Position numbers and translations under genes: made by a program
The notes under the pieces: generated by a model
What the model was told of the DNA's origin: nothing
What the model saw: only the letters and a program-made list of their open reading frames with translations
Database searches by the model: none
In this document: positions 4,768-36,535 of the stretch, in pieces
Position numbering within the stretch: position 1 is the stretch's first letter
Layout: the number at the start of each line of letters is the position of its first letter
Assembly: GCA_041747555.1 (NCBI GenBank)
Contig: JBGTEY010000011.1
Span: 12,696-76,695, forward strand
Length of the DNA stretch: 64,000 bases
Origin: Patescibacteria group bacterium
Lineage (GTDB): Bacteria > Patescibacteriota > Microgenomatia > UBA1400 > PJMF01
Direction of reading: 5' to 3'

Positions 4768-4885
4768 TAACCTTTCACAAAAACAAATAGTTGAATATTC
4801 TATGCCAAAAGCGATCAATTCGTTTTGGTTTTTTTTGACTTTCAAAGCGTTTAACTGATCAAAAAACGCCCTCCTATCCCCATTA

Positions 4886-4914
4886 TTGCTACTTTTGATA
4901 TAGTTTGATACAAT
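4886..4914 (+). promoter_or_regulatory. Sigma70-like promoter TTGCTA-17-TACAAT upstream of the LAXTG protein gene
   Basis: TTGCTA (4886-4891), 17-nt spacer, TACAAT (4909-4914), about 24 nt upstream of ATG 4938. It sits in the 137-nt intergenic gap after a convergent-free region. Confidence 0.45.
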
Positions 4915-4937
4915 ACATCACAATAATAAACCTTATT

Positions 4938-5522: not shown

Positions 5523-5525
5523 GTA

Positions 5526-9273: not shown

Positions 9274-9962
9274 GGTGTAAATCCTTCATCTGACTCTAAA
9301 ATTTCTCGTGCAGGATCAAAATCGGCGTCAAGTGGACCGGGTATCGCAGGATCACTGAGCTCCCCAGGTTCATTTGAGGCAGGCGCATTGGGATCTGCTG
9401 CCACAGGACCACCTGGAGTGGCCAGGATTACAGTGAGCGTTAAATTATAACTAGCTTGACTGGTTCTTGATAAACCACTCTTTGATATCCCCGCAAATTT
9501 ACTCTTCACCTCTGGGCTATCGAGTGTTGCGAATACTTGCTCCATTACAAACACACTCGGAGCCTGAACCGTGAACTGCAAAATATCATTTGAGCTCGAA
9601 GAGTAATCAATTTCACTAATAATCACCTCAGGACCAAATACTTGACTAAAAAATTCAAACGCTTCTTGTTTATCTTTTCTAACACCAAATAATTCAGTGA
9701 GCTGTTTGAGTTTTTGAGCAAACACGTTGTAATCGAGCTCCGTCTGTTGCTGAGATGAAATTACTTGCCTAATTGTATCTTGTTCATCGAGTACCCCACG
9801 AACCTGGAAGACATAATACAATCTTGTCCCGAGCGCAATCAAAAAGACTGCAAACACCGCCACAAACACATAGACTACTTTCTTGAGAATTTCATAGTCC
9901 TTGCGCTGGGTAAGATCAAGCCTTTTGCGCCGCTCACCAACAAAATTAATAGTCTTTGACAT
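9270..9962 (-). CDS. pilN: Type IV pilus assembly protein PilN-like
   Basis: Short cytoplasmic N-terminus, a single TM helix (VVYVFVAVFAVFLIALG), then a periplasmic domain. Located between pilM and pilO. Confidence 0.6.
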   Translation of the reverse strand: MSKTINFVGERRKRLDLTQRKDYEILKKVVYVFVAVFAVFLIALGTRLYYVFQVRGVLDEQDTIRQVISSQQQTELDYNVFAQKLKQLTELFGVRKDKQEAFEFFSQVFGPEVIISEIDYSSSSNDILQFTVQAPSVFVMEQVFATLDSPEVKSKFAGISKSGLSRTSQASYNLTLTVILATPGGPVAADPNAPASNEPGELSDPAIPGPLDADFDPAREILESDEGFTP

Positions 9963-10034
9963 AGTTCTATTTCCTTTGAGCCAGTTCTAAAGGCTCAAAA
10001 TCGTGCGTTTTCAAGCAAGGAGCATCATCCCCTA

Positions 10035-11045
10035 CTACATTTCACGCTGCATTAACCCCATACAGACGGTCATGCTTGGCTGATTTACGGTATTGGGAAC
10101 GTTATCGGTCACCCCCGCAAATGGCGACGCGACAAGCACTTCTACTCCGAGCTCAGCCGTCGCAAGTTGGACTATTTCCGGGAGCATCGCCGAACCACCA
10201 GAGAGAACAACGCGCTTGATCGGCTGCTGTGTGTGCTGGTTATTGAAGAATTGTGCTGACTTGGCAATTTCTCCCGTGAGAATTCTGACTCCTGGGAGCA
10301 GAGCTTCGCGGACTTTACCTTCAAATTGATTTTCAATGAGTCCGTAGGTGCGCTTGTATTGCTCTGCCTGGACAGTATCGAGTCCAACGGCTGATTCCAA
10401 CGCGCGCGTCAATACCTGACCACCATTCATATTTGTAATCACAAACTGGAGTTCTCCCTGGTGGATAGCAAACAAATTCATGCTTGAAGCACCAATATGA
10501 GCTACAAGCGTGGTTGGGTCATCTACATTGAATTGAAGTGAGCGGGCAATCGAGATAACTTGTGTTTCTAGAAGTGTTGGCTCTACCCCCAGCTGATGAA
10601 ACATATCTACAAAGCGCTCAACCATAGCCTTGCGGGTGCCAACGAGGAGGACGCGCATTTGACCTTGGTCTTTTTTAACTGGTCGGTACAGCACCTGATA
10701 TTCGAGCGAAAGCTCCTCTGGTGGAATAGGAATATGTTGCTCTGCTTGCCAGCCAATTGCTGACGCCAACTCGGCGTCGGTGAGCGGGGGAATGGAGATA
10801 ACTTTGGTAGAAACAACTGTTTCGGGGAGGGCGAGACGAACATCGGTGCGTGCGAGCTCATTATCTTTTAGAAATGAATCAATCAAGGTACCAAGCTGCT
10901 CTTCACTGGCGTCGTCGGTGGGCATTGCTAGTCCCGTGGTGTTGAGGACGTCTACTGCGCGCTCGATCGTTGGACGAGTTCCTGGCTTGCCCGCGATTGC
11001 TTTTATACTGTAGGTGCCGATATCAAGTGCGATGGACTTCGCCAT
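10035..11045 (-). CDS. pilM: Type IV pilus assembly ATPase-fold protein PilM
   Basis: Actin-like/FtsA-like N-terminus MAKSIALDIGTYSIKAIAG. 336 aa. Confidence 0.85.
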   Translation of the reverse strand: MAKSIALDIGTYSIKAIAGKPGTRPTIERAVDVLNTTGLAMPTDDASEEQLGTLIDSFLKDNELARTDVRLALPETVVSTKVISIPPLTDAELASAIGWQAEQHIPIPPEELSLEYQVLYRPVKKDQGQMRVLLVGTRKAMVERFVDMFHQLGVEPTLLETQVISIARSLQFNVDDPTTLVAHIGASSMNLFAIHQGELQFVITNMNGGQVLTRALESAVGLDTVQAEQYKRTYGLIENQFEGKVREALLPGVRILTGEIAKSAQFFNNQHTQQPIKRVVLSGGSAMLPEIVQLATAELGVEVLVASPFAGVTDNVPNTVNQPSMTVCMGLMQREM

Positions 11046-11070
11046 ACGTGCCTTTCTTCATGTGCTCTAG

Positions 11071-11871
11071 TTATTTAACTAACGCTGCTCCGCTATATAC
11101 TGCATAATCCATGATTGAAGGCGCGACCGGTAGGGTTCTCGTGACCTGAATCGTTCTCTGTTCGTCGCCAAATGTATTGCTTGCTTCAGATCTGACCCTA
11201 TAAAATTGATCAGGCATATTATTACCTGCTACGCGGATATGAGTGTCATGATACACAGCTTTGATACGGACAAAAAGGTCGTTATTATTAACCGACAAAT
11301 TATAGCGAAGCGTATAGCCGCTGGAGTTTGAATTTTGCGCATTATCAAAATTATCAGATCCACAGCCTGGTGGACCAACCGGAATGTGTCGGACGCGATT
11401 TCTACCTGAGGTGTAGGAATAGACAGAAAAGATCAGTGAAGCTTTTTCGTTGCAGGGATTTTCTCGAGCCCAGCGGACCTCTAAATTGCCATTTACTGCA
11501 TTGTCGAGTCGAACCATGGCACTGAGACCCTCGGTGAGGCGAGTTTCCAATACGTCTGATGGGGTGATGGTGTAGCTGACATCGACACCGTCGATCGTTG
11601 CAACATCGGTTTCTGCGCCACTCAAACTATCAAAATCTTGCGAAAGCGCATCTTCTACACCAGTTTCTGCGGCATTAAAAACACGGCTCGATTCTGATTG
11701 CTGTTGAGAGAGGAAGACTTCTTGGGTGGTGCGGGTGGCAATTGAAAGGCCGATTGTGAGAAGGACCACCATGATGAGGAGGACGACAACTGCGACTTGA
11801 CCAGATTGATTGGCACGCTCAGAGAGTGGCGAAAATTTCCTGGTGGTGGGCAGCATACGAGTTGGCATCAT
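11071..11871 (-). CDS. PilX-N-domain minor pilin-like protein
   Basis: N-terminal QSGQVAVVVLLIMVVLLTIGLSIATRTTQE matches the PilX_N pattern (QRG.AL..VL...L..G...E). Lies upstream of pilM on the same strand. Confidence 0.55.
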   Translation of the reverse strand: MMPTRMLPTTRKFSPLSERANQSGQVAVVVLLIMVVLLTIGLSIATRTTQEVFLSQQQSESSRVFNAAETGVEDALSQDFDSLSGAETDVATIDGVDVSYTITPSDVLETRLTEGLSAMVRLDNAVNGNLEVRWARENPCNEKASLIFSVYSYTSGRNRVRHIPVGPPGCGSDNFDNAQNSNSSGYTLRYNLSVNNNDLFVRIKAVYHDTHIRVAGNNMPDQFYRVRSEASNTFGDEQRTIQVTRTLPVAPSIMDYAVYSGAALVK

Positions 11872-11945: not shown

Positions 11946-12515
11946 TTAAGAGTAATCTTCGCTTTGTTCCATGTCTTTTTCGATGAGGTTTCTGAGATAA
12001 ACGGATCGCGGGATCTTTTTTGATTGAGAGATCCAATCTAAATACTGGCCGATCGCTGGCGATATGAAGAAATTGAATCTAACATCTTGGTGACTTGATG
12101 CGTACTCAATAGCATCCTCAAGCACCTTCCTTAAATTTTTCTGATTGTACCTCGCTAGCAGTAGTAAATCTCCACCTTCGTCTCTTAAAAGATGCGGGTC
12201 AACTCCGTCACGATATAGCGCAATTACGGGCTTATTCATAGACAATGCTAGCGCTATTTCCTGACCAAGACCAATACTGCTTTTCGAAACTTCCACTACA
12301 ACTAAGTCTGCTTTTTTCTTGAGCTTAGTTAAGCTCTTTTGAGCCTCTATTGCCTCTTCTGTTGACTGAGATTCATATGCATTTTTTGTTTTTGATAAAA
12401 TTGCATCATTGATCACGGAATGTCCCAGCTCGTACATAGTTGAGACAATGGTATTGCAGTTAACTTTGAGTTCTTCGTCCAGCTGACTTATAGAGACACT
12501 AAAATAGATTTTCAT
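11946..12515 (-). CDS. DNPH1/nucleoside 2-deoxyribosyltransferase-like domain fused to C-terminal ribbon-helix-helix (CopG-like) domain
   Basis: N-terminal KIYFS... and ADLVVVEVSKSSIGLGQEIALALSMNKPVIALY align closely with the DNPH1/Rcl and NDT catalytic region (ADVVVAEVTQPSLGVGYELGRAVAFNKRILCLF); the nucleophile Glu is retained. The C-terminal RFNFFISPAIGQYLDWISQ...RSVYLRNLI is an RHH-like beta-strand plus two helices. It lies 27 nt downstream of the deaminase gene on the same strand. Confidence 0.55.
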   Translation of the reverse strand: MKIYFSVSISQLDEELKVNCNTIVSTMYELGHSVINDAILSKTKNAYESQSTEEAIEAQKSLTKLKKKADLVVVEVSKSSIGLGQEIALALSMNKPVIALYRDGVDPHLLRDEGGDLLLLARYNQKNLRKVLEDAIEYASSHQDVRFNFFISPAIGQYLDWISQSKKIPRSVYLRNLIEKDMEQSEDYS

Positions 12516-12542
12516 GTGCTAATTATATCACTATTTGGATGT

Positions 12543-13025
12543 TTAAACGGAGGGAATACTTAAAGATAGGTCTAGATTTTTAATTGGCTCACCTTGTAGA
12601 AATAGATCTTCGCACTCTTTAGCCATCACACCAGGGACAACTTCAATCTTATATTTGTCGGTCTTAAATCTCTTTGGAAGGTGGTGTTGCAAACACATGC
12701 CCCCGCTTTCATCTATGTTTGTCCCATAAACAACTCTCTTTATGTGGTTTAGCAAAATTGCCCCTAAGCACATCGGGCAAGGTTCATATGTAGCGTAAAG
12801 CGTAGCCTCTGATCCTCTTTTAGTGAGCAACTCAGATATCTCATTCATTGCGATAATTTCTGCGTGATTGATTTTATTATTACTAGAGTAAACTTTGTTA
12901 TATCCCCTAGAAACTATCTTACTATCAATAACTATTACACAACCAATTGGCCAGTTTCCTGATTCTAAAGCCTTCATGGCTTCATCAAGTGCCTCTTTCA
13001 TGTAAAAATCATCGTTTGGTTTCAT
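12543..13025 (-). CDS. CDA-fold zinc deaminase, TadA/guanine-deaminase (GuaD)-like
   Basis: HAEIIAM and YEPCPMCLGAI zinc-binding motifs. The PCPMCLGAI string is identical to B. subtilis GuaD; the overall layout also fits tRNA adenosine deaminase TadA. 160 aa. Confidence 0.8.
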   Translation of the reverse strand: MKPNDDFYMKEALDEAMKALESGNWPIGCVIVIDSKIVSRGYNKVYSSNNKINHAEIIAMNEISELLTKRGSEATLYATYEPCPMCLGAILLNHIKRVVYGTNIDESGGMCLQHHLPKRFKTDKYKIEVVPGVMAKECEDLFLQGEPIKNLDLSLSIPSV

Positions 13026-13196
13026 GACAGCTTCTAGCTACTTCTAATAGTCTATATCATTCATTTAAAAAATTTCCGCAATAATACCATACATGCGTCT
13101 TTTATGCGTATATCTATTACTTGAAACGGGGTAGTATATCATTTTTTGATTATTATTGATATAATTATAATTGTTAATATTTCTTAAATTTTATAA

Positions 13197-13751
13197 ATGA
13201 AAATTCATTTTTCAGCAGCAGTTGACGGTGACCAAGTCCGTTATGCTCAAATAGTGAAAATAATTCAAGATCTTGGACATACCTTGATCACGGACCATTA
13301 TTTAGTCACTACCATTGAAAATATCAAAAGACAGAATGGCGAAGAAGGGGATCAATATCTCAGAAATGTTCAGAAATGGAACACTCTCGCAGATATTGTA
13401 GTCTTTGAGGTATCAAAATCTGATATAAGTACCGGTTATGAGATTGGGTTCGCATTACAATTACAAAAACAAGTTGTCGTTTTGGTTGGCGACGACCAAC
13501 CCACTTTCCCTCACACACTTAAAACGCTAAACAACTTGAATCTTCAAATAATTGAATATAATTCTAAAAACTTAAAGTTTGCGATCGAGCAAGCAATTGA
13601 TTATGCTAACTCATGCAAGAACATTAGATTTAATTTTATGCTTTCTAGTGAACTGAATGCCTATCTCACTTTGATATCCGAAAAGAAAAAGTCAACCAAG
13701 TCAGAATTTCTAAGATCACTACTCATTGGCTACCGCAATAAGCACAGCTAA
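13197..13751 (+). CDS. Paralogous DNPH1/NDT-like domain + C-terminal RHH domain protein
   Basis: MKIHFSAAV...ADIVVFEVSKSDISTGYEIGFAL (Glu retained). C-terminal IRFNFMLSSELNAYLTLISEKKKSTKSEFLRSLLIGY is an RHH fold. Divergently transcribed from the deaminase operon. An extended -10 box TGATATAAT lies at 13157-13165. Confidence 0.55.
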   Translation: MKIHFSAAVDGDQVRYAQIVKIIQDLGHTLITDHYLVTTIENIKRQNGEEGDQYLRNVQKWNTLADIVVFEVSKSDISTGYEIGFALQLQKQVVVLVGDDQPTFPHTLKTLNNLNLQIIEYNSKNLKFAIEQAIDYANSCKNIRFNFMLSSELNAYLTLISEKKKSTKSEFLRSLLIGYRNKHS

Positions 13752-13891
13752 TACACACCCAGTACACATTGCAATATTATAAGACCTTATATATAATTGC
13801 CGCATTGTCATCTTGTATCGTGCTGCATCCCATATAAATAGCCTGCACGCGCAATTTGAAAAAGTGAATAATAAGTGTTGTAATAAAAACT

Positions 13892-15808
13892 ATGAGATCA
13901 AAAGATCTATCACCGCTATCTTTGCTATTACCTGAGTTATCTCACCTAATTCTTCATGCGATGAATGAGGAAAGAGGCGAGTCAGATGATGAGATTGAGT
14001 TTTCTGTGGAAGATATCGAACTAATCGAATATCGAAAATTCCTAATTTCCAATTTACTTTCAGAAATTATTCCTGCTGACGAGTCGAATAACGCGTCAGT
14101 CTATATTGGAGTCTCTCTTGATGAGAACACGGTTGACCTTATTACAGATATTGCAGAACAAAGCGTACGCGACGGCCTTACACCTGACGAGTACAAATAC
14201 TTAGCAGTAACTTTGAAACAATCAATTGCTGCAGCTCTTGATGCAGAAGAATATTTACTACTCACCCCAGAAGCAATTGACGAAATGTCAGACGAGGAGT
14301 ATCAGCAAACAGTTCTAGAAATTGCACAGGGAATCGTATCAGCACTTGATAACAATCCCGAATTACCTATAAAAACGAGGGAACGATGGCGAAGAATTTC
14401 TAAACTCATTCTATTTTTAATTATAGCTGTCCTCTTCCTCGCTGCTTGCGGATCAGTAGAACCTGCAGTAGATGATCTGGCAACAAGGACAACCCTTGCA
14501 CCAGAGGATGACGATGACGACTCAACCGGAGGTGATGGCGGTGATGATGGCGGAAATGGCCCTCCAGATGAGGAAGAACCAACACCAACGCCTGTACCAC
14601 AACCCACTGGAACTCCAGAACCAGAGCCAGAACCAACTGCAACACCAACTATACCTGACGCAGAAAGCATAGAAGTTATAGCCAGCGATGATGTTCTTAG
14701 GGAATTCCACGCAAAGTTTGTTGAATTTCTTTTCACGAACGAAGCATTTGTATGGCAATTTGATACAAATATTGAATTTGAGGTCTATGAGACAGCGATA
14801 GGAAATGTACTGTTAGCAGAAATTGTAGATGATTTCGAATATCAAGGAGAAAAATATCCCGAAGGTACTCACTTGAGGTTTGCGAGTCTTGATAGCACAG
14901 AACCTTACTTTGCGTCCGTTGAAGGCAGTCAATCTGTGATCGATCTAGCAGGTGGAGTAGGTACTGTAGTTGATATCACCGTCGATTTAGAAACAGGACA
15001 AACAGTCGCAGTTGATGCAGATGGAAATGTACTTGCGCAAGTTAATCTAGAATCGAATCAGTGGGAGATTAATCCAGATTTATTGATACCAGATTTGCCA
15101 CCAGCGACCGTGGAGACGTTGTTGACGGATACGACACTTGATGAATCAACGATACTCAGATATTTGGTTCGTCCATTTAATACAGAATCGCGTGATACTA
15201 TCGCATTCGGGCCACCTGCAGAAGGCGTTGAGTTCTCTGATGAAGAAATGAGCTGGGAAATAATCGTTGATAGATCAGACCCTGCTGCAACATTCTATGA
15301 CAACATGCGACTTTACACTGGATTTGACGTTGAAGTAGCATCTCGTGCTTGGGAAGAGGCGCCTGATGGCTATACAGAATTAGCAGTAAAATATATCGGA
15401 CACTACACAGCGGATTTTGGAGAACACGGTACCGAAGAATGCGCTATTTTTCAAACGTGGATTGAAGAAGAAGGTCAAGTTATACCTCTCATTTTCGCGG
15501 TCAGTTTATCAGATGCTCACATGTTGAAAAATTTTAATTATCTAGATGAAAACTTTGAAGTAAAATCAAATTCACCACAATCTGCTACTTCTATTGTTGG
15601 TAACTTGGAGCGAGCAAATCCTTATATGATAATAGCGGTAGCAATAGGCAATAAGAATGATGCTGCCGATTCTTTTGCTCATGGTTTAGTAACACCCGAC
15701 GATCGCCTTCCTGACTTTGCAGTTTTTAACTCAATACATGACGTACTTGGAACAGAAGTTACCAGCACGCCCGCAATTGGTGCTATCTTTGCGCAGGCCC
15801 AGAAGTAA
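13892..15808 (+). CDS. Hypothetical bitopic envelope protein (acidic N-domain, lipobox-like TM segment, Pro/Thr/Glu-rich linker, ~400-aa extracytoplasmic domain)
   Basis: Residues ~165-190 (RERWRRISKLILFLIIAVLFLAACGS) look like a lipoprotein signal peptide, but are preceded by ~165 aa of acidic sequence in the same ORF. A low-complexity DDDDSTGGDGGDDGG/PTPTPVPQPTGTPEPEPEPTATPT linker follows. No recognisable catalytic motif. Confidence 0.45.
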   Translation: MRSKDLSPLSLLLPELSHLILHAMNEERGESDDEIEFSVEDIELIEYRKFLISNLLSEIIPADESNNASVYIGVSLDENTVDLITDIAEQSVRDGLTPDEYKYLAVTLKQSIAAALDAEEYLLLTPEAIDEMSDEEYQQTVLEIAQGIVSALDNNPELPIKTRERWRRISKLILFLIIAVLFLAACGSVEPAVDDLATRTTLAPEDDDDDSTGGDGGDDGGNGPPDEEEPTPTPVPQPTGTPEPEPEPTATPTIPDAESIEVIASDDVLREFHAKFVEFLFTNEAFVWQFDTNIEFEVYETAIGNVLLAEIVDDFEYQGEKYPEGTHLRFASLDSTEPYFASVEGSQSVIDLAGGVGTVVDITVDLETGQTVAVDADGNVLAQVNLESNQWEINPDLLIPDLPPATVETLLTDTTLDESTILRYLVRPFNTESRDTIAFGPPAEGVEFSDEEMSWEIIVDRSDPAATFYDNMRLYTGFDVEVASRAWEEAPDGYTELAVKYIGHYTADFGEHGTEECAIFQTWIEEEGQVIPLIFAVSLSDAHMLKNFNYLDENFEVKSNSPQSATSIVGNLERANPYMIIAVAIGNKNDAADSFAHGLVTPDDRLPDFAVFNSIHDVLGTEVTSTPAIGAIFAQAQK

Positions 15809-15861
15809 TTATTCCGTTTGCACTTGTTGCACAGACACGTCTAGTCAGCTAGACTGACTGT

Positions 15862-16503
15862 ATGGAAAGTTCAAAGCAATCTTTTTATGTGGTGGGGAGT
15901 TTTTTAGTTGTCATTCTCATTGCTGTAGTTGGATATCTGTGGTATCAAAATCAATCAATCAAAAGTATTGCATTACCAACAACTAGTCAACCAAGTACCG
16001 TAGATCCTCGAACTGCACCTGTCATGCCCAAGCAAGATGGGGTCGTTGCAGACACACCACTGCTTGGTATTTTTGAAATAGGTTCGTCTCGAATTCCTAC
16101 TATTTCTGGCATTGTCGAGTCTGTTGACTTAATCGATTTGGGAAATCCTGGGCAACCGGAGCAATACTTTGTAGTCATTTCTAGTTTAGAAATACCTGAG
16201 GCAAAAATCAGAGTTGGAATCGGCCATGCTCAATACATGACCTCGGTTAGATACACAGGTGGCACCCCAACAGCAGGCAAAATTGTCGAAGAAAACATGC
16301 GTGTCAGGGACTTAGTTGAAAAAATAATACCAGGAGAAATTTTCACTGCTGATCTAACATTTCCTCAAGAGCAACCCGAGATACGATCAACCTTTATGGA
16401 CGACATAAAAGCATTTGAAGCAGAGGTGCTTGAAGGCAGTAACCCAAACCCATTCAATGTCCACTACTTTAGAGTACAAAAAATTGCGCTGCCACAAACA
16501 TGA
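15862..16503 (+). CDS. Hypothetical N-terminally membrane-anchored protein
   Basis: TM helix (FYVVGSFLVVILIAVVGYLWY) followed by a ~180-aa exported domain. Overlaps the next gene by ATGA. Confidence 0.45.
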   Translation: MESSKQSFYVVGSFLVVILIAVVGYLWYQNQSIKSIALPTTSQPSTVDPRTAPVMPKQDGVVADTPLLGIFEIGSSRIPTISGIVESVDLIDLGNPGQPEQYFVVISSLEIPEAKIRVGIGHAQYMTSVRYTGGTPTAGKIVEENMRVRDLVEKIIPGEIFTADLTFPQEQPEIRSTFMDDIKAFEAEVLEGSNPNPFNVHYFRVQKIALPQT

Positions 16504-19500
16504 CAAAAAGAGGCATCTTTAACCTTCTCGGGCTCATTCTTATTGTTTTTAGTGTGATTTTTTTCTACCAAACAAGAGTAGTGCAGGTTGCTGATGCTGT
16601 GCAGGGTTGGGCGCCCGGGAACTGCGGATGGACATTATCGGTGGTGCAGTGGTCTTGCAACACCAATACCGATCGTTGTTACGAATGGGAATCTGGAGAA
16701 ACGCCAAGATGGTATTGCGATGCAACAAGTGTTGGATACACTACCGAAGCGCTGTGTAACGACTCATGCACAGGCAACTGCGAATATACCTGCCTTAATG
16801 GTTGGGCAAGGCATTGCGTCATCAGTGACACAGATGTCGGCTGCGACCATCCCAACGAAAACACCTGCACCGCTGACGTTTACGCCGTTCAATGCTCTTC
16901 ATTAGCTGGAGGCGATGACTGTTCCACCAGCACTGAACCCATCGACGTCCGACAATGCTGGGTTGGCAATGGCCCTCCACCACCAGACGATCCACCCCCA
17001 GGAGGAGGAGGTTGCGACGGCAACTGGTGGGGCTGTGGAGCTGGTTCTTGTTTGGAACCTTTCGATAATCAATCAGCATGTGAAACTTCAACTGGAGGAT
17101 CATGCCAATGTGGCTCATGCCCTGCAGCGTGCACTAGCTCAACTGGTAGACGTGCAATTTTTCTCTTCGAGGACACAAATGAGAATGGCGCCTGGGATCA
17201 TGCCGCAGGTGAGCTTAGGATTTCTACCACGAGTTCATGCGTTGCATCAAATGCACAATATGTAGCTGGGGCACAGATTCTCGTTGATGGAGAAGCACGA
17301 TTTGAAAGCTGCAATGTAGGTAATTCAGAGTTCACTGGAGCAGTCTGTACTTGGGATGATCCTGTACCTCCTGCGACGCAGTGCAATGATGGCGACGATA
17401 ATGGCTTCACCGTAGGACCATGCGAAAGATGGGGTCCAGAAAATAATGGAGTAAATAGTACCTGCTTTACCCAACACAGTTGCGGTGGGGGATGTCATTA
17501 TTCTGGTGACGGATGTAACGGAGCAGTTCCAGAAGCTGGTGTAATCTGCGATTCTGGAAATTGTTCCGGTTCAGGAGATCTCAAATCCGGCAGCTACCTC
17601 ATCATGCCTCGCGACACCGGCAACCATACCGTTGGTGCTACGGTTCCTGCAGGCTGGCGTATTTCAAATGGTATGTCCGGCAACCCAATCACGGTCAACT
17701 GGAGCAGAACAAATGGCTCGTGTGAGGGCGGTCCCGTTGGAATTGGCTTAGTACGCGATACAAATACATCATGCTACGTTTCGCCATCGTCAACAACAGT
17801 TGCCGGTGGAACAGGATCAGTTTCTGTGCGCCTCTGGGGAAGCACAGATGCGACTACCACGCACACCGCCAGACTGTGGCTGCAAACTAAAAATCCTAAC
17901 ACGACTGCACCTACAGCACTTCAGATGAACCCAATTCCAGCACTGACAACTCAGTTTTTAAATTCAGGACGATATTCCTATCAATATACTGGCGCAGCTT
18001 GTACAACTAGTAACGGCACAAGTTGCACAACCTTAACCGACGTCACTGGACTTCCTCAAGGGTCATATTACTTCCATTGCGATGTTGTTCAGGGAACTTC
18101 TGCACCTTTCGCCCCAGAATGCTCTGGAAATCCATCGTGCTTGTATGAAGGTTTGGGTGGTTTAGTCGATTGTGCTGCAAACGGCTGGCAAAGTTGTTTG
18201 CCATCATCTGCAACACCAACAGACAATGCTCCTCTGACTGCCACATGCGTTCCGTCCTGTACACCAGCTTGCGGAGGACCAGATGGTTGTGGTGGAACCT
18301 GCGCGAGTACTGATTTAGGTATGCCAAGTTCGGTTCAAAATCTCGCACCTACAGGCAATTACACTGTCACTAGTACAACAGTTCCCATTACTTGGACTCC
18401 ACCTGCCACCAACGCAGCACTAGTTGATTCATATGAAATTAAAGTCTTTGCTGGAATTCTACCGATTAATGAAAATGCTATTACTAACCGCCCTTGCAAC
18501 AACACGCCTGGTGGTGCTGTCTGCGCTTCTGTTAGCAATACGATCACGAGCTGGAACTATGCTCCTCAAGTTGCAAAATCAAGAAATATTAATATAGCTG
18601 TGAGACCACGAAATCTATCTTGTAGTAATCAATCTGCCCCGTGGGTTGTCACCAATGTCACACTTCAGGGGGAAATTACTGGAAACTTCTACATTGATAA
18701 TGGCAATGCTGCCATTGTTGGTGGATTCTGCAGAAATGGTGGCACACAACCAGCTTCTGTTCAGACAGGCACCAACATCGTAACTACCATGAATAGTAAT
18801 CCAGTTGGTTCAAGTTCAATTGGGGCCAGCACATATACCATTTCAGCTGTTCCGTACACACCGACCAGCGCCTGGGGACCTCTAGGAATTATGACCCTGA
18901 CATTAGATAATCCTGATGCAGAAAACACGCTAGCATGCGCATGCCCAGTACCTGGCTCTGACCCATTTGTCTGCCAGTATGGCGGTGTTGCGGCACCAAG
19001 ACTTGGACCAAATGCTCCAGTCAATTGGTACCTCGACCTCTACGACCTCAGTAACGACCCTTGGTGGCAAACAAGAGGCGGTTTGGCGTATGCAAGAACT
19101 GGTGTGCTCAGTACAGACATTCCACGTCCTTGTGTTGATGAAAATAATCCAGCTGTGTGTGTTCCGTATATGATTACTCGGGAAGTGAGCAATGGGCTGG
19201 CTGTTAGTGCAGGTGTGCCAATGACGGGTGGGGGAGCAATACTATCTGGTACCGATGCACCTGGCTATTTCACCGACCGCAACCCTCAACCAAGAGCACA
19301 AGGCACTGATCACAGCGGAATTGTTCAGGAAGATTACGCATTCTTCTCAAGTCTCTACAATCTCAGTCAGGTTGCGCAAGTTGCCAGCAGCAATTTAGTC
19401 AATAAGGACAGCTTGCCAGCACCCGTTAATCCAGATGCAGATGGCACCGAAGTATATTACCGAAATGGAGACCTCACCATCACGCCAACAGAAATTTGGG

Positions 19501-19973
19501 CAATTGCTCCAGGTGAAAAGAAAGTACTTTTCGTAAATGGTGATCTAACTTTCCAGGGACCAGGGCACACCAGCAATCGCATGATTCGCGTAGATACCCA
19601 AATTGGTGGCGGTTCAGGTTTTATAGCGTTTATCGCCTCTGGAGATATCACTTTTGACGAAAATGTTGGACATCCTAATTATGCTCAAGAAACTCCCAGC
19701 AATATCGATGGTTTATTTGTCGCTGATGGACAGATCATTATTGAAGGAGCTGCCGATGCTAATGTCAGCGACCGCAAGTTCCTTGGGGCAGGCACATTTG
19801 TAGGCTGGAGTGGTTTTGATATGCAGCGCGATTTTGCCAATGACGCAGATCCACTCTCACGAGCGCTCAATAACCTTGATCCAACCGAAAGTTTTGAATT
19901 CCTACCAGGCTTAACTAGGCATATTCCAGATAAAATGAAAACACCTGTCATTGAATGGCAGGAAGTCAACTAG
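16500..19973 (+). CDS. Giant Cys-rich surface protein (1157 aa) with FN3 domain and beta-helix-like C-terminus; candidate pilus-associated adhesin
   Basis: N-terminal TM/signal anchor. More than 70 Cys in the first ~600 aa (CxxC, GCG, CQCGSC patterns). An FN3-like segment PSSVQNLAPTGNYTVTSTTVPITWTPP...YEIKVF. The C-terminal repetitive G/N/D-rich region looks beta-helix-like. Encoded directly upstream of minor pilin genes. Confidence 0.5.
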   Translation: MTKRGIFNLLGLILIVFSVIFFYQTRVVQVADAVQGWAPGNCGWTLSVVQWSCNTNTDRCYEWESGETPRWYCDATSVGYTTEALCNDSCTGNCEYTCLNGWARHCVISDTDVGCDHPNENTCTADVYAVQCSSLAGGDDCSTSTEPIDVRQCWVGNGPPPPDDPPPGGGGCDGNWWGCGAGSCLEPFDNQSACETSTGGSCQCGSCPAACTSSTGRRAIFLFEDTNENGAWDHAAGELRISTTSSCVASNAQYVAGAQILVDGEARFESCNVGNSEFTGAVCTWDDPVPPATQCNDGDDNGFTVGPCERWGPENNGVNSTCFTQHSCGGGCHYSGDGCNGAVPEAGVICDSGNCSGSGDLKSGSYLIMPRDTGNHTVGATVPAGWRISNGMSGNPITVNWSRTNGSCEGGPVGIGLVRDTNTSCYVSPSSTTVAGGTGSVSVRLWGSTDATTTHTARLWLQTKNPNTTAPTALQMNPIPALTTQFLNSGRYSYQYTGAACTTSNGTSCTTLTDVTGLPQGSYYFHCDVVQGTSAPFAPECSGNPSCLYEGLGGLVDCAANGWQSCLPSSATPTDNAPLTATCVPSCTPACGGPDGCGGTCASTDLGMPSSVQNLAPTGNYTVTSTTVPITWTPPATNAALVDSYEIKVFAGILPINENAITNRPCNNTPGGAVCASVSNTITSWNYAPQVAKSRNINIAVRPRNLSCSNQSAPWVVTNVTLQGEITGNFYIDNGNAAIVGGFCRNGGTQPASVQTGTNIVTTMNSNPVGSSSIGASTYTISAVPYTPTSAWGPLGIMTLTLDNPDAENTLACACPVPGSDPFVCQYGGVAAPRLGPNAPVNWYLDLYDLSNDPWWQTRGGLAYARTGVLSTDIPRPCVDENNPAVCVPYMITREVSNGLAVSAGVPMTGGGAILSGTDAPGYFTDRNPQPRAQGTDHSGIVQEDYAFFSSLYNLSQVAQVASSNLVNKDSLPAPVNPDADGTEVYYRNGDLTITPTEIWAIAPGEKKVLFVNGDLTFQGPGHTSNRMIRVDTQIGGGSGFIAFIASGDITFDENVGHPNYAQETPSNIDGLFVADGQIIIEGAADANVSDRKFLGAGTFVGWSGFDMQRDFANDADPLSRALNNLDPTESFEFLPGLTRHIPDKMKTPVIEWQEVN

Positions 19974-19980
19974 TCACGCC

Positions 19981-20502
19981 ATGAAATACTTCGCAAAACT
20001 CTTGCTGAGACACAAAAAAACACCTCAAAAAGGTTTCACACTCATAGAATTGCTGGTGGTAACCTCACTCCTCGTGTTTTTACTCGTCTCAATATCTAGT
20101 CTCTTCATGACATTTCTCCTGAGTGGCTCGAGGCTTAATACACGTAATCTGGTCAAGGCAGAGGGTAGACACGCGCTTAATCAAATGGAATTTATGCTCA
20201 GAAATGCACTTGAAATTACCACCAACAGCAGTAATCAAGTCTGCCAAACGGGTATGAATCGTATTGCCTTACGCTCATCAGACGGTCGTATCACGGAATT
20301 CAGAGTTCAAAATGGAAAAATAGCATCAAATTCCGCAAGTTTAACATCAGAAACGGTCCAGATCTCAAGTGGCCCCACGTTTGATTGTGAAGAGGGGGTT
20401 ACGGGTCAGGGATATGTTCGAATTTCCTTTGAATTAACAAAATCAGTTCCCGACGCAGTCGTCACCGAACGATTTAGCAGCATTGTTGGCTTGAGAAACT
20501 AA
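19981..20502 (+). CDS. Type IV minor pilin / pseudopilin (GspJ/PilW-like)
   Basis: Class III signal: basic leader ...KKTPQKG followed by FTLIELLVV (Gly-Phe cleavage site, Glu5). Start set to ATG 19981 because the track start 19951 (TTG) overlaps the upstream CDS. Confidence 0.75.
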   Translation: MKYFAKLLLRHKKTPQKGFTLIELLVVTSLLVFLLVSISSLFMTFLLSGSRLNTRNLVKAEGRHALNQMEFMLRNALEITTNSSNQVCQTGMNRIALRSSDGRITEFRVQNGKIASNSASLTSETVQISSGPTFDCEEGVTGQGYVRISFELTKSVPDAVVTERFSSIVGLRN

Positions 20503-20536: not shown

Positions 20537-21019
20537 TCAATTCCACCGAGTAAATTCTTGCACCAACACCACGGTTCTATCATCGCTAGAAGTCCTAAAC
20601 CAACTCACGGTCACTTCAACACGCACCACATCGGTATCAGGAAAAGTTATATATGCTTCACGCGAAAAATCTTGCCCAGACGCGTCAATATTCATCGGAC
20701 AATTTGCTTGCGCAGGCATATCTCCAAGAGAGAAGGCATCTTCTGGAACACAAAAGTTTTGTCCATTAGAAAAACTAGACTGAAATGTGCCAAATCCAAG
20801 TAAGCCTCGCTCTTTTCTAAAAATATCTATTGCTTCTTGAGCGAGCGTCGTTGCAACTTCTCGATAGCGAGCCTCAGCTTGATTTTTGATTGAATACGTC
20901 ATCCCAGAAGCAATTGCAGTTACAACAAGAGCCATGACCATCGTTGCTACTAATAATTCGACTATCGTAGACCCTCGCTGGAGATTTTTTCTCAACCATG
21001 CGTATTTTTTCATAACCAA
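20537..21019 (-). CDS. Type IV minor pilin (PilV/GspI-like)
   Basis: Leader MVMKKYAWLRKNLQRG then STIVELLVATMVMALVV prepilin motif. Confidence 0.7.
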   Translation of the reverse strand: MVMKKYAWLRKNLQRGSTIVELLVATMVMALVVTAIASGMTYSIKNQAEARYREVATTLAQEAIDIFRKERGLLGFGTFQSSFSNGQNFCVPEDAFSLGDMPAQANCPMNIDASGQDFSREAYITFPDTDVVRVEVTVSWFRTSSDDRTVVLVQEFTRWN

Positions 21020-21606
21020 TCTCCCTCAGTAATCTCGCCACCTTCTCGGATCATAAATTGCCATTCTCGGTCAAAACCTTGTACAGTTATTGTCCTTGTA
21101 GAATTGTTGGTACCTACAAACTGCACACCGCCGTATAACGACCAAAATCGAACGTCTAGATCACCATTGTCTGTAGTTATGGTAACGGTGCTGGGAAGCT
21201 GATATTCGCGAACTGCGCCCCTCACAACGTCTAATTCACTATCCTGCTGCACCCGACCACAACTGGCGTAGAGCTGTACAGTCGGACCAGGAACACCTGC
21301 GGGCGCGGTTACTCTCCAACCTTGTAAGGGGAGTCCCGCTGCGGGATCACATTCTGGTGGTGTCTCTCGTACTCGGGCTTTGGTTTGGGCAGAGCGGAGA
21401 ATGGTTTGGAGTTCTTTGTTGGCAGTAGCCACAGTTTGACGGTCATTAAAGGTGATAAATGAAGCGATGCCGCCGCCTACAACCACGAGTAAAATACTTA
21501 CCGTAATCATCAGCTCGATAAATGAAAATCCACGATTTCCATGAACTACACGCTTTTCACAATTTTCATGCATTCCACGAAAGGGTAAAAGTGATTTGTT
21601 GATCAT
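21010..21606 (-). CDS. Type IV minor pilin (FimT/GspH-like)
   Basis: ...VVHGNRG followed by FSFIELMITVSILLVVVG prepilin motif. The start is uncertain; the internal Met at 21573 would give a 15-aa leader. Confidence 0.7.
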   Translation of the reverse strand: MINKSLLPFRGMHENCEKRVVHGNRGFSFIELMITVSILLVVVGGGIASFITFNDRQTVATANKELQTILRSAQTKARVRETPPECDPAAGLPLQGWRVTAPAGVPGPTVQLYASCGRVQQDSELDVVRGAVREYQLPSTVTITTDNGDLDVRFWSLYGGVQFVGTNNSTRTITVQGFDREWQFMIREGGEITEGDWL

Positions 21607-21618
21607 GTCTGCTCACAG

Positions 21619-22089
21619 TTATGGCTGGGTGACACAATAGAAGTTCCCGGTCCCAAAATTACAGTTATTATTGGTGGAATTACCCATGTTTGTTCCTTCC
21701 AATTGAGCACAAAGACAGAAGCCAGTGGTGCCTGTTGGGACGTACCGATAGTCTTGCGTTGGGGTTTGCGGATCCTGAGGAACTGGTTGACTGAGGTAAT
21801 TATCTCCCGTGAGAACACCAGTTATTGCACCGTAATTGCCACCAGGAGGATATGCGCCCTCATCTGCTCGATAGAGCACAATTGCTTGCCTGACTGTTTC
21901 CATATCAGTTTTGCGCTTGCCATTTCTGGCATTTCTTCCAGCATTCGTGAAGCTGACCATGCCAATTGCAGCTAGAATTATGATGATAGTGGCAACAACG
22001 AGGAGTTCAATGAGTGAAAATCCACGTTTTTTCGATAAAACATGCCGAGCGCCAAAGTCAGAAAAGATTGATTTATCCGTTATTTTCAT
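21619..22089 (-). CDS. Type IV pilin (PilA/GspG-like)
   Basis: MKITDKSIFSDFGARHVLSKKRG then FSLIELLVVATIIIILAAIG. The start was moved to the internal ATG 22089 because the track ORF 21619..22194 overlaps the upstream pilin gene. Confidence 0.75.
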   Translation of the reverse strand: MKITDKSIFSDFGARHVLSKKRGFSLIELLVVATIIIILAAIGMVSFTNAGRNARNGKRKTDMETVRQAIVLYRADEGAYPPGGNYGAITGVLTGDNYLSQPVPQDPQTPTQDYRYVPTGTTGFCLCAQLEGTNMGNSTNNNCNFGTGNFYCVTQP

Positions 22090-22121
22090 AATATTGGCCT
22101 GCGAATGTGTCAAAGTGTCAG

Positions 22122-22610
22122 CTACTGTAGATTCTTGACACAAAAGCGAGTTGTTCCAGTGGTAAAAGTACATCCAGTTCCTGTGCAAGCACAACTATTG
22201 CAGTTACCGTTTCCAGCCTCCATAACTGCTGAAACACAATATCCACCAGTTGCATTATAGGCACAGGTGTACGTTGAATCGGGTGCTCTAGGATCAGCAG
22301 GAAATACATCGAGTACTCCAGCTGATTGCAGTTGCGAACCACTACATCCGCTAATACTTGCATATGTTGAATTATTCGCGGTGTAGTAAATTTCCTGCGC
22401 AGTTTGAATTGCCTTCAAATCACCAGATCGCCTGGCGTCACGAGCTTTCCTCTGGGCAGTGGTAAAACCAGCCACACCCATTGCTACCAAAATTGAAATG
22501 ATCGAGATAACAACCAGCAACTCAAGGAGAGAGAAACCAGATTTCCGTGAAGTTCGGAACCGAGCATCACCATGTATATATGTTTCAATCGATTTAAATA
22601 ATTTTTTCAT
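22122..22610 (-). CDS. pilA: Type IV pilin, likely major pilin (PilA-like) with Cys-rich C-terminus
   Basis: MKKLFKSIETYIHGDARFRTSRKSG then FSLLELLVVISIISILVAMG. The AQRKARDARRSGDLKAIQTAQEIYY alpha1-C region is typical of PilA/GspG. C-terminal cysteines suggest a disulfide loop. Confidence 0.75.
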   Translation of the reverse strand: MKKLFKSIETYIHGDARFRTSRKSGFSLLELLVVISIISILVAMGVAGFTTAQRKARDARRSGDLKAIQTAQEIYYTANNSTYASISGCSGSQLQSAGVLDVFPADPRAPDSTYTCAYNATGGYCVSAVMEAGNGNCNSCACTGTGCTFTTGTTRFCVKNLQ

Positions 22611-22668
22611 AGCACTCCTTATAGTTCTATACTAGTATGAAGCACGCCTAGTGCGCAAGTCATACTTT

Positions 22669-23640
22669 TTATTGCGAAGTCGATCCCGTCTGGTTATTTA
22701 CAATTACGATCATCGTACTCACAGGTGTATCAGCTGATTCAATACCCCAATTGTCTTTGAGGCTAATTCGTACATTGTACTCACACTGAGTAGTTTCGCA
22801 GGTAAATTTATGATTGACTGCTTTGGCGGTTGCCCTGACCTGTTCGGTTGCACCGTCACCAAAGTCAAGCGTCGCGGTAACACTACTTGCCTGACCCTCA
22901 TCTGCAACATACACAAATTCAACTGTCGCACCAGAGGCAATTTCAATCGTTCTGGTCTTTAGATCAAAAAATGGATTACTGGTAAATGACAAAATGACTG
23001 GACGAGATACGCACGCTGAGTAGCATGATTTTTCACAATCAGTAGTACCTACCAAACGATCGCCAACACCTATGTGCGATACATCCTGACAGCATTCATA
23101 GCCATAGCCAGTACAGCTCGTGATCGGTCCGCTCTCGACACTAGGTAATTCTTCGCCCTCATGCAAGATTCTGTTATCAATCAGCAGAGTTCTGCTGCGG
23201 CTGACCCACTTACCGTGGTTAAAAAGAAACGCATTCAATTGCTGTTCTAGTTGGCCAAAAACTTTAATTTCGATGCCACTTTTGCTTGTATTCCAGAGGA
23301 ATCCTGATCTACCTGGAGCTTTTTCCACGAAAGGAGGGAGTTGTTGTCGTTCAATTAGAATTGGGTCGCGTGAATTCTGACTGCACAATGCCTCAAGCAC
23401 ATACTCTGTAGAAGAAAGAAATCTGAGTTGCAAAAATTCCTGCCCACCAGAAGAAAGTCCTCGACGTCGACACTCAATCTCATAACTACCTTGATTGCTT
23501 GCCCTTTGTAACTGCTGCAAAGACTGCTTAACGGTTGATATTCCCCAGTAAAGTAGTCCTTCGCGTGCCACAAAAAAACCAGTAATGGCAATTACAATAA
23601 CAATTGACAACCACAAAAATAAGTACCGCAAAACACGCAT
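22669..23640 (-). CDS. Hypothetical membrane-anchored protein in the T4P locus (C-terminal Ig/PKD-like beta domain)
   Basis: TM helix LFLWLSIVIVIAITGFFV. The C-terminal ~100 aa are beta-rich (TRTIEIASGATVEFVYVADEGQASSVTATLDFGDGATEQV resembles PKD-like domains). Start taken at Met8 of the track ORF. Confidence 0.4.
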   Translation of the reverse strand: MRVLRYLFLWLSIVIVIAITGFFVAREGLLYWGISTVKQSLQQLQRASNQGSYEIECRRRGLSSGGQEFLQLRFLSSTEYVLEALCSQNSRDPILIERQQLPPFVEKAPGRSGFLWNTSKSGIEIKVFGQLEQQLNAFLFNHGKWVSRSRTLLIDNRILHEGEELPSVESGPITSCTGYGYECCQDVSHIGVGDRLVGTTDCEKSCYSACVSRPVILSFTSNPFFDLKTRTIEIASGATVEFVYVADEGQASSVTATLDFGDGATEQVRATAKAVNHKFTCETTQCEYNVRISLKDNWGIESADTPVSTMIVIVNNQTGSTSQ

Positions 23641-23698
23641 ACATCCATAGTAACCAATCAATCAATCGACGTACAGTAACAGTCTGAAAAAATCGTAT

Positions 23699-24529
23699 TT
23701 ACCTCAAGAGCTGGAGATACCATTCCCACAAAACCAATCCATGAGTCATGCTCAACAAAAAACCCACAATCAGAAACGGACCAAATGGAATTGGTTGTCG
23801 CCATTGTCTTTTTTTAGAAGCAATCAGAAATACACCAACCACTGCGCCGATCAAAAAGGCCAAAAACAGTCCCACCAGCGCCTGCGGCCAGCCTGCCACT
23901 AGGCCAAGTGGGATCATTAATTTTACATCACCAAACCCCAAACCTTTACCTTTCGTCCCTGCCCAAAGCAAAAACATACCTGTAGTAAGGCCCAAGGTGA
24001 TTGCGATTGTTGCTATGAAGTTTGTCGCGGGTGCTCCCAAACCGTATGTTGTCACCTGGTAGAGCAGAGTAAGTATGGTTAACAGAATAATAGATCCATC
24101 GGGAATAATCAGATATTTCAGGTCAACAAGCGTAATGTACGTGAGCGTCAAAAACACAATAAGCCAATATAGTGCTGTTATCGTCAATAGCAGGTTGGAA
24201 AACGACAACACGCCCATTGCAACAAGTGCGAACCAGATCAGAAATACTGCGCCAAATGCAATTTCTGAGACCAAATGTGTCTGCGTTATGGGCTTTTTAC
24301 AAAACCTGCATGTACCCTTGAGGAACAAAAATGAAAGTACCGGAACCATATCAAACCACTTGAGTAATTTATGGCAGTGATCACAAGCAGATCTGCCGGT
24401 GACCCATAACTTTCCCTCGGCGCCTCTAGTAGCCATGACATGCAAAAAACTGCCAATCACAGCTCCAAACAAAAACAAAAAAAATCCACCAAGTAATGTA
24501 CTTATAGTTTCTAGGAGTGTATTACTCAT
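23699..24529 (-). CDS. pilD: Prepilin peptidase (A24 family) with N-terminal Zn-finger
   Basis: CDHCHKLLKWFDMVPVLSFLFLKGTCRFCKKPI tetra-Cys motif. Second catalytic Asp in GFGDVKLMIPLGLVAGW. Polytopic. Confidence 0.88.
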   Translation of the reverse strand: MSNTLLETISTLLGGFFLFLFGAVIGSFLHVMATRGAEGKLWVTGRSACDHCHKLLKWFDMVPVLSFLFLKGTCRFCKKPITQTHLVSEIAFGAVFLIWFALVAMGVLSFSNLLLTITALYWLIVFLTLTYITLVDLKYLIIPDGSIILLTILTLLYQVTTYGLGAPATNFIATIAITLGLTTGMFLLWAGTKGKGLGFGDVKLMIPLGLVAGWPQALVGLFLAFLIGAVVGVFLIASKKRQWRQPIPFGPFLIVGFLLSMTHGLVLWEWYLQLLR

Positions 24530-24590
24530 GAGGACCTACCAAAAGCCCTGAGCTCTTGCGAACCCAGGGCATATATATTTCTAATTTTGT

Positions 24591-25250: not shown

Positions 25251-25366
25251 GTGTGTTTTAAACTTACAATTACTCTATACTAAAAAACAACCTTTCTGCA
25301 AGTAGCATCTGGGAGGACTGCCCAAATTGCTATGCAAACTCTCGATCTCAACACGATTTGTCTCAA

Positions 25367-26572: not shown

Positions 26573-26575
26573 AGT

Positions 26576-27640: not shown

Positions 27641-27665
27641 ACCAACTCCTTATATTCCTCAAACC

Positions 27666-36487: not shown

Positions 36488-36535
36488 ATCTCAAGATTTC
36501 AATTATAGCACGAGCATGTGCATTAAAAAGTCCGC

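Follow-up and report, generated by a model that had tools for sequence, protein, structure and literature searches.

Within a 64,000-nucleotide stretch from a Patescibacteria group bacterium (GenBank assembly GCA_041747555.1, contig JBGTEY010000011.1, positions 12,696 to 76,695; hereafter, the window, whose first letter is position 1), four consecutive genes on the plus strand, here called A, B, C, and D, make up one operon, which recurs as an accessory unit of the type IVa pilus locus across Microgenomates-group Patescibacteria. Gene A (13892–15808) encodes a protein of 638 amino acids (aa); gene B (15862–16503) encodes a 213-aa protein with an N-terminal transmembrane (TM) anchor and an ectodomain; gene C (16500–19973) encodes a secreted, modular, non-pilin protein of 1157 aa with 56 cysteines; and gene D (19981–20502) encodes a prepilin-type minor pilin of 173 aa. 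In the interpretation to which we give an even chance, C is a PilY1/ComZ-like non-pilin adhesin that D links to the pilus, and B and A are its membrane-bound partners.

A Conserved Operon in the Pilus Locus

An earlier reading of the window, made from the sequence alone and without database searches (the sequence-only reading), had described three plus-strand open reading frames (ORFs) of 638, 213, and 1157 aa; all three are found at exactly the coordinates that it gave, show coding-type codon usage, and are conserved elsewhere. Codon-usage scores in frame range from 0.16 to 0.28 bits per codon for A (extension and ectodomain alike), B, C, and D, and the same test returns negative scores for the off frames and for the spacer upstream. 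The coupling of C to B that had been described is likewise borne out, the stop codon of B and the start codon of C overlapping as ATGA at 16500–16503. This junction is tightly kept: in each of the 18 loci measured, B and C either overlap or lie no more than 9 bases apart (gap of −4 in 9/18), and two additional loci (L027 and L028) have a B-sized gene abutting C. Whereas the sequence-only reading closed the set with C at 19973, the operon runs on into the prepilin gene D, whose ATG at 19981 lies 7 bases past the C stop; the C–D gap is again at most 9 bases or an overlap in 13/13 pilus-linked loci measured. A candidate sigma-70-like promoter (TTGCAA-17-TATAAT, plus strand, 13769–13797) sits in the 140-bp AT-rich gap 5′ of gene A; it was called by consensus match alone (10/12), and such sites are not above shuffle expectation in the region.

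The two arms of a complete type IVa pilus locus enclose the cassette; the pilus setting recognized earlier is confirmed by pilus genes on both flanks. Among the 27 distinct loci examined, A-B-C occupies the same place in 14, drawn from diverse Patescibacteria, namely between the pilM arm and the pilin-pilD-pilC-pilT-pilB arm. D is present in 13/13 of these 14 pilus-linked loci that were checked for it (L027 falls outside this check) and is encoded on the plus strand next to C, with the other pilins on the opposite strand. At a further two loci, both on short contigs, a pilin adjoins C; at seven, no pilin or pilus gene is nearby; and four are too short to classify. The core unit is therefore A-B-C, to which D is added when the unit resides in a pilus locus. 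Because its position is the same in 14 loci, the cassette is a resident of the pilus locus in this lineage and not an insertion, as the word "inserted" in the sequence-only reading had implied. No published description of the A-B-C-D cassette was found in the literature.

That reading had also looked to Saccharibacteria for comparable loci. However, a GyrB at least 90% identical to that of the window carries the name "Microgenomates group bacterium", and the named related loci belong to Pacebacteria, Microgenomates, or unclassified Patescibacteria. The records of several related loci (L001/L005, L006, L007, L009, L014–L018, L023, L024, and L026) include titles such as "uncultured Pseudomonadales bacterium" and "Chloroflexota/Chloroflexi bacterium"; their gene content and their similarity to Pacebacteria and Microgenomates suggest taxonomic mislabelling or mis-binning.

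Gene D, a Dedicated Minor Pilin

The features of D indicate, at the level of sequence, a bona fide prepilin. Its leader, MKYFAKLLLRHKKTPQKG, is followed by FTLIELLV with Glu5, in the cleavage-site context KG|FTLIELLV, and the protein scores above the cut-offs of both N_methyl (26.4 bits vs. 21.2) and TIGR02532 (21.4 bits vs. 16.3). The automated gene call on the identical public contig starts D at 20056 (148 aa) and thereby cuts away both the leader and Glu5, whereas translation from the ATG at 19981 gives a canonical prepilin; the stretches concerned are 19951–20502 of the window (plus strand) and 4557–5003 of locus L004.

Gene C, a Secreted Modular Protein with a Conserved Solenoid

Gene C begins with a predicted Sec-type (signal peptidase I) signal peptide (16500–16598, plus strand), in which MTKRG and a 19-residue hydrophobic core precede the predicted cleavage site VADA|VQ, with neither a prepilin motif nor a Gly/Glu5 motif. 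Many relatives display textbook AxA|Q signal-peptide sites with the Cys-rich region directly after them, and a scan of 152 family sequences for a prepilin motif returned none (0/152). C is thus secreted and is not a pilin, given this signal peptide and the absence of prepilin motifs across the sequences scanned. Neither LPXTG, nor a lipobox, nor a second TM segment is present in C.

Behind the signal peptide, three regions can be distinguished. The first is a variable Cys-rich region (aa 34–600; 16599–18299, plus strand) containing 46 Cys, with an isoelectric point (pI) of 4.2 and a Gly+Ala+Ser+Thr content of 41%. The whole protein contains 56 Cys (4.8%), all between aa 42 and 887, rather than the more than 70 counted in the sequence-only reading. 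The second is a β-sandwich stalk of FN3 and Ig-like type (aa ~601–850; 18300–19049, plus strand), and the third is a conserved C-terminal β-solenoid module (aa ~851–1157; 19050–19970, plus strand) of ice-binding-protein/ComZ-like fold that ends in the tail WQEVN. In an AlphaFold2 model built with 100 homologues, the predicted local distance difference test score (pLDDT) reaches 85–98 for aa ~605–1150 (85–96 in the stalk) and falls below 50 for most of aa 22–600; the C-terminal tail is poorly ordered in this monomer model. The model contains an FN3 β-sandwich and a triangular right-handed β-solenoid, the latter an ice-binding-protein-like domain of the kind that characterizes ComZ. The structure prediction that had been proposed for the 1157-aa protein, with a β-propeller or a β-helix in mind, has accordingly given a β-solenoid as the C-terminal module and no PilY1 β-propeller; in sequence as well, C lacks the PilY1/PilC β-propeller domain (Pfam PF05567). 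A GspK-like pilin domain with an inserted solenoid is also absent, the parts N-terminal to the solenoid being FN3/Ig and Cys-rich. A calcium loop of SdrD-B-like type was considered for FEDTNENGAWD (aa 222–232); it found no Pfam support, and no claim is made for it.

The genes for A, B, and C had been called unannotatable, and indeed none of the three has a match in Pfam or NCBIfam, nor did PDB sequence searches with A, with B, and with the profile of C return anything below E 0.1. The C family is nonetheless large. A word-indexed search found only four relatives of C, whereas an exhaustive profile search recovered 1960 representative clusters at E ≤ 1e-3; at E ≤ 1e-30 the number was 503. Family members align mainly over profile positions ~567–1143 and are variable before them, with only ~15 members aligning to the Cys-rich region of C (aa 34–600). 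Among 39 members, the variable N-terminal parts carry CBM_4_9 (4/39), F5/8-type-C, TSP1, Big_2, and fn3 domains. Gly, Phe, Trp, and Pro account for most of the residues that are invariant in the solenoid, a pattern that would suit structure or docking better than catalysis, and the tail W-[QKR]-E-[VTI]-N stands at the very C-terminus in ~80/152 sequences.

In three loci (L013, L014, and L019), each with one B and one D, C at first appeared to be split into two ORFs. This option was rejected, since a separate signal peptide and an entire solenoid module are present in both ORFs; the pairs are tandem C paralogues with differing N-terminal regions. L027 likewise holds two C paralogues and one B, D not being among the features checked there.

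Gene A, a Lipoprotein-Type Signal behind a Long Extension

Lipoprotein signals are normally located at the extreme N-terminus. In A, however, such a signal begins 171 residues into the protein. The N-terminal extension (aa 1–171; 13892–14404, plus strand) is translated, predicted to be cytoplasmic, and acidic (pI 4.05); it is followed by a TM/signal-anchor segment, LILFLIIAVLFLAAC (aa 172–186; 14405–14449, plus strand), an acidic P/T-rich linker (aa 187–260), and an acidic ectodomain (aa 261–638). The lipobox-like TM segment and the P/T-rich acidic linker noticed in the sequence-only reading are therefore real features of the protein. The single TM segment, preceded by RERWRRISK, ends in the lipobox FLAAC with Cys186, so that the pattern [LVI][ASTVI][GAS]C after basic residues and a hydrophobic segment (RERWRRISK-LILFLIIAVLFLAAC) is present, but far beyond the first ~15–40 residues within which the Cys of a lipoprotein is normally found. 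Compared with bacterial lipoproteins in general, i.e., the substrates of Lgt and signal peptidase II, A shares the basic residues, the hydrophobic segment, and the lipobox L-A-A-C; it differs in that its signal lies 171 residues in, and those of nine orthologues 92–317 residues in.

A wrong start or a fusion of two genes had been raised as an explanation, together with a check for an internal start near 14390. No such start exists in frame: the ATG found there, at 14386, belongs to another frame, and the in-frame start closest to the TM segment is M132 at 14285. Moreover, the 171 codons of the extension contain no stop in frame, as opposed to 10 and 16 stops in the other two frames, and its codon-usage score (0.23 bits per codon) is comparable to that of the ectodomain (0.28). 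The extension is thus stop-free, coding-like, and recurrent in orthologues, and for these reasons the wrong-start and two-gene options are rejected: the 638-aa ORF is one continuous coding frame whose extended architecture recurs elsewhere.

The orthologues of A can hardly be aligned, and a word-indexed homologue search with A returned A alone; for this reason, orthology is argued from position, architecture, and a local jackhmmer search. The architecture common to these proteins is a hydrophobic segment with a lipobox Cys, a P/T- or acid-rich linker, and an ectodomain. In 16 positional orthologues, that of the window included, the lipobox Cys closes the only TM segment, and this conservation argues for the predicted lipidation of A. 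A translated extension of 92–317 aa precedes the signal in the window and in nine other loci. The orthologue in L017 has an extension of ~165 aa followed by a TM segment without the lipobox Cys; with L017 counted, extensions occur in 10/13 pilus-linked loci compared (L027 being left out) and in one stand-alone trio. Several orthologues have ordinary short lipoprotein signals. No sequence similarity was detectable among the extensions, and a Pfam search of 10 orthologues yielded one SH3_3 domain (L010) and nothing else. At the stand-alone A-B-C locus L003, where gene A has an ordinary N-terminal lipoprotein signal, lgt and lspA are found at 13805–15356, within ~1–2 kb downstream of C.

Gene B, the Most Constant Neighbour of C

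The protein encoded beside C with the greatest regularity is B, a small membrane protein of type II. As had been proposed, it is anchored by one N-terminal TM helix (aa ~3–32), which is followed by an ectodomain of ~180 aa; the anchor is a plain one, without a prepilin motif. An AlphaFold2 model from the single sequence (pLDDT 42) is confident in the TM helix alone, and hhalign comparisons of the B family with the PilN, PilO, PilX-like, PKD-protein, and D families detected no relation (probabilities ≤5%). Within the 53-bp spacer between A and B, a palindrome, GTCTAGTCAGCTAGAC (15839–15854, plus strand), with a 6-bp stem and a 4-nt loop, ends 7 bases 5′ of the B start codon; it may be a hairpin acting on the translation or processing of B-C, or it may be due to chance.

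Comparison with Known Pilus-Associated Proteins

One close parallel is ComZ of Thermus thermophilus (PDB 6qvi), with which C shares the ice-binding-protein-like β-solenoid fold. ComZ, a competence pilin, carries its solenoid as an insert within a GspK-like pilin domain; it binds DNA and also the adjacent minor pilin PilA2, and its position at the pilus tip has been argued on steric grounds (PMC6561018). The two proteins differ in several respects: ComZ is itself a pilin, whereas C has a Sec signal peptide and no pilin domain; C adds a Cys-rich region of ~570 aa and an FN3 stalk; ComZ binds DNA, whereas C is strongly acidic; and the PDB search with the C profile detected no sequence similarity between them. 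The solenoid fold is also common to C and the ice-binding protein/DUF3494 family, although membership is not detectable by sequence: DUF3494 (Pfam) has no match in C aa 850–1157 at E ≤ 1 or in 39 C-family members at E ≤ 1e-3. Furthermore, the context of C is a pilus operon and not cold adaptation, and the C family has its own conserved C-terminal tail, W-Q-E-V/T-N.

In its overall organization, C resembles the PilY1/PilC family of Pseudomonas, Neisseria, and Myxococcus. Proteins of both kinds are non-pilins of ~1000–1200 aa, secreted by Sec and encoded in an operon with minor pilins; both combine a variable N-terminal part with a conserved C-terminal module, and both occur as multiple paralogues per genome. 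PilY1, however, has a β-propeller, which C lacks. A large non-pilin with a type I signal peptide in a minor-pilin operon constitutes a functional analogy and does not prove homology. The C-terminal module of PilY1 is known to rest on the priming complex of minor pilins (Treuner-Lange et al. 2020, cited in PMC11623550). The odds appear balanced that C is the functional counterpart of PilY1 and of ComZ/PilA2.

Among Patescibacteria themselves, PilX1 and PilX2 of Saccharibacteria TM7x are tip-adhesin candidates and proposed binders of host cell-wall glycans (PMC11623550). These proteins and the C cassette have in common a patescibacterial type IV pilus locus and a large accessory protein with a lectin-like domain. 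PilX1 and PilX2, however, are described there as pilin-like, with an N-terminal helix, a pilin domain, and a β-jelly-roll or β-propeller, which C is not, and an A-B-C-like trio is absent from the genes that this source lists for TM7x type IV pilus locus one. The PilX_N-like gene of the window (11071–11871) is separate from C.

Proposed Mechanism and Competing Interpretations

From the gene structures, signal types, operon packing, synteny, family size and architecture, and folds, we infer the docking and all protein–protein contacts, the tip location, the adhesin role and its ligand, and the roles of A and B in the scheme that follows. C is exported by Sec and is not a pilin; its conserved solenoid would act as a docking module on the minor-pilin complex that primes and caps the pilus, the docking partner most likely being D, the pilin encoded directly after C. 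The variable disulfide-rich head, which in relatives contains lectin-type modules, would be exposed at the tip of the pilus and bind, as an adhesin, a glycan of a host cell or surface, and the FN3/Ig part would serve as the stalk between head and solenoid. B, through its translational coupling, and A, through its lipoprotein-type anchor and P/T-rich stalk, may retain or escort C before loading; such a role of A and B as membrane-bound holders of C would also account for trios that lack D. From the position next to the pilin genes, the sequence-only reading had already suggested a pilus-tip adhesin or host-attachment complex. This suggestion has since gained a dedicated pilin, a ComZ-type solenoid fold, and lectin-type modules in the family, whereas the placing of C itself on the pilus is still conjectural.

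Several findings weigh against docking on the pilus through D. A-B-C occurs without D or a pilus gene nearby in the seven stand-alone loci (flanks of up to 10 kb per side, less where the contig ends), whose settings include places next to dnaK and next to dnaB-lgt-lspA; the core trio is therefore not strictly dependent on an adjacent pilin, and part of the C family lives outside pilus loci. Orthologues of this kind with a defined unrelated function had been named as a finding that would speak against a pilus role; the seven loci go some way in that direction, but no unrelated function is defined for any of them. Stand-alone and pilus-linked copies of C end in the same conserved tail, so the partner of this tail, if any, is more likely to be B or A than D. 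The solenoid of ComZ is inserted in a pilin domain that C does not possess; the generic ice-binding-protein fold outscores ComZ as a match to the C solenoid; and this fold is common in secreted proteins that have nothing to do with pili. Finally, a mirror-tree comparison, in which pairwise evolutionary distances from 10 loci were partially correlated with those of the C solenoid, gave 0.72 for the PilX-like protein, 0.60 for B, 0.46 for D, and 0.44 for the PKD protein, a weak test by which D is not singled out.

Much of this evidence would also fit A-B-C as a self-contained cell-surface complex, the main competing interpretation, possible but doubtful, in which C is held by B and the lipoprotein A via the solenoid or the tail. 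It would then work at short range, as an adhesin or an envelope protein, without need of the pilus fibre, and co-regulation would be the only reason for its location among pilus genes. C has no covalent anchoring signal and therefore needs a non-covalent anchor; the seven loci without D, the B–C coupling as the most constant feature of the cassette (all 18 loci measured, plus L027 and L028), the tail shared by stand-alone and pilus-linked copies, and the higher mirror-tree value of B than of D, weak as that test is, all agree with such a complex. On the other hand, a pilin is packed against C in 13/13 pilus-linked loci checked while the other pilins lie on the opposite strand, 14/27 loci have the cassette at the same position inside pilus loci, and the solenoid fold of C is that of a pilus-tip protein.

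A bolder version of the pilus-docking interpretation joins all four genes and is, on balance, improbable. It would see in the cassette an unrecognised host-recognition system widespread in the Microgenomates type of the candidate phyla radiation (CPR), in which interchangeable secreted C heads (Cys-rich, CBM, or discoidin) dock via one conserved solenoid on a dedicated minor pilin and thus decide what the pilus grabs. A would then be a new kind of pre-pro-lipoprotein with a cytoplasmic pre-domain of 90–320 aa that signal peptidase II would cut off. One gene would thus give two products, a lipoprotein at the surface and a fragment in the cytoplasm or membrane, and these would tie the loading of the adhesin to the pilus machinery.

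The domain order of A (cytoplasmic domain, TM segment, P/T-rich linker, and ectodomain), together with a translated N-terminal extension that recurs in 10 orthologues, recalls a transmembrane signalling device of RsgI-type, anti-sigma-like architecture, which would signal to the cytoplasm the binding of C or of the host and in which the lipobox Cys would be incidental. This is very unlikely: the N-domains of A and of 10 orthologues gave no Pfam match, whether to an anti-sigma, RsgI_N, or zf-HC2 family or to any other, the extensions of the orthologues show no detectable sequence similarity, and the genes adjoining A are nucleoside 2-deoxyribosyltransferase-like (NDT-like) and deaminase genes rather than a sigma factor gene. 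Moreover, 16 positional orthologues, the window's included, retain the Cys that closes the TM segment, and several orthologues have ordinary short lipoprotein signals.

The match of the solenoid fold to the DNA binder ComZ (PMC6561018), as well as NDT-like and dCMP deaminase genes between the pilus arms in the window and in L001, L002, L009, L017, and L021, would be expected if C were a ComZ-like DNA receptor of a competence pilus, with the cassette and the nucleoside genes serving DNA uptake and salvage in a bacterium unable to make nucleotides. Such a role is highly unlikely, because the solenoid is uniformly acidic: every part of C has a pI of 4.2–4.5 (4.4 in the solenoid), and across 149 family members the final 300 residues give a median pI of 4.4, with none above 7.5. 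In addition, the variable parts in the family carry carbohydrate-binding and not nucleic-acid-binding modules, and the pilin domain of ComZ is missing from C.

That the cassette is recently acquired foreign DNA functionally unrelated to the pilus, such as prophage receptor-binding proteins or an integrated element, is almost certainly wrong even though G+C rises slightly, to 0.47–0.485, at 16–20 kb against a window mean of ~0.44, for this rise fits the Gly-, Ala-, Pro-, and Cys-rich composition of C, position and order are the same in 14 divergent genomes, codon usage is like that of housekeeping genes, no integrase or repeat occurs at the cassette borders (the nearest integrase is at 36536–37471), and a viral structure search gave no meaningful match, a phage origin being contradicted by synteny, codon usage, and this fold search.

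Implications for Host Attachment

A considerable part of bacterial diversity falls to the Patescibacteria (CPR), whose way of life appears to be attachment to other microbes. To our knowledge, there is almost no molecular lead on host recognition in CPR outside Saccharibacteria. The cassette is a concrete and conserved candidate for host attachment in an uncultivated CPR lineage, its function being proposed on indirect grounds. C represents a family of ~2000 sequence clusters with no Pfam or NCBIfam match that is physically tied to pilus genes, and a variable lectin-like head combined with a conserved docking module would be the expected traits of a host-range determinant. Two solutions for carrying a large non-pilin protein on a type IV pilus are known, the β-propeller of PilY1 and the solenoid inserted in a pilin of ComZ; if docking of C on the pilus is correct, a solenoid on a separate polypeptide would be a third structural solution. 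At the same time, lipoprotein signals that lie behind long translated extensions and recur in orthologues present a protein-targeting puzzle.

Neighbouring Genes and Other Observations

On the pilM side of the cassette, the minus-strand arm of the pilus locus (8479–11871) encodes a PilO-like protein, a PilN-like protein, PilM, and a 266-aa PilX_N-like protein without Glu5. The gene for the last of these (11071–11871, minus strand) lies upstream of pilM; its product has a weak Pfam match and a hydrophobic N-terminal helix and is a candidate capping pilin. Between this arm and gene A lie two NDT-like genes and a dCMP deaminase gene (11946–13751). Two to four NDT-like genes, in some loci accompanied by a dCMP deaminase gene, are found between the pilus arms in the window and in the five loci listed for them above; salvage genes within a pilus locus could hint at a link of the pilus to the uptake of DNA or nucleosides.

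The convergent arm (20537–29672, minus strand) comprises four prepilin genes (20537–22610), a Cys-rich PKD-domain protein (22669–23661), PilD (23699–24529), a probable major pilin (24591–25250), PilC (25367–26572), PilT (26576–27640), and PilB (27666–29672). The PKD-domain protein (330 aa) has a TM segment at its N-terminus and the PKD domain at its C-terminus, contains 11 Cys, and gave no NCBIfam match. Its place between the minor pilins and pilD is kept in 13/13 pilus-linked loci examined, across which it matches with phmmer E-values of 1e-37 to 1e-102.

The remaining window is ordinary chromosome, with genes such as gyrB, gyrA, holB, tgt, tsf, rpsB, nusB, and rnc. Just upstream of the type IV pilus locus, four scarcely annotated ORFs of 587, 543, 449, and 205 aa, one of them CarboxypepD_reg-like, are followed by a sortase gene at 5526–6056; this region (61–6056, plus strand) may be a sortase-dependent surface-protein or pilus cluster. 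A tyrosine recombinase of the Phage_integrase family (311 aa, within 36414–37471, minus strand) is encoded directly beside a tRNA gene (36414–36487) and could either be a housekeeping enzyme of XerC/D type or mark the border of an integrated element. A 393-aa protein with a lysyl oxidase domain (39855–41036, minus strand; Pfam E 1.4e-10), which is unusual in bacteria, adjoins a 690-aa ORF without a Pfam match (37716–39788, minus strand). Finally, GyrA (33617–36358, plus strand; 913 aa) matches the DNA_topoisoIV domain in two separate stretches, which suggests an insertion within the catalytic domain.

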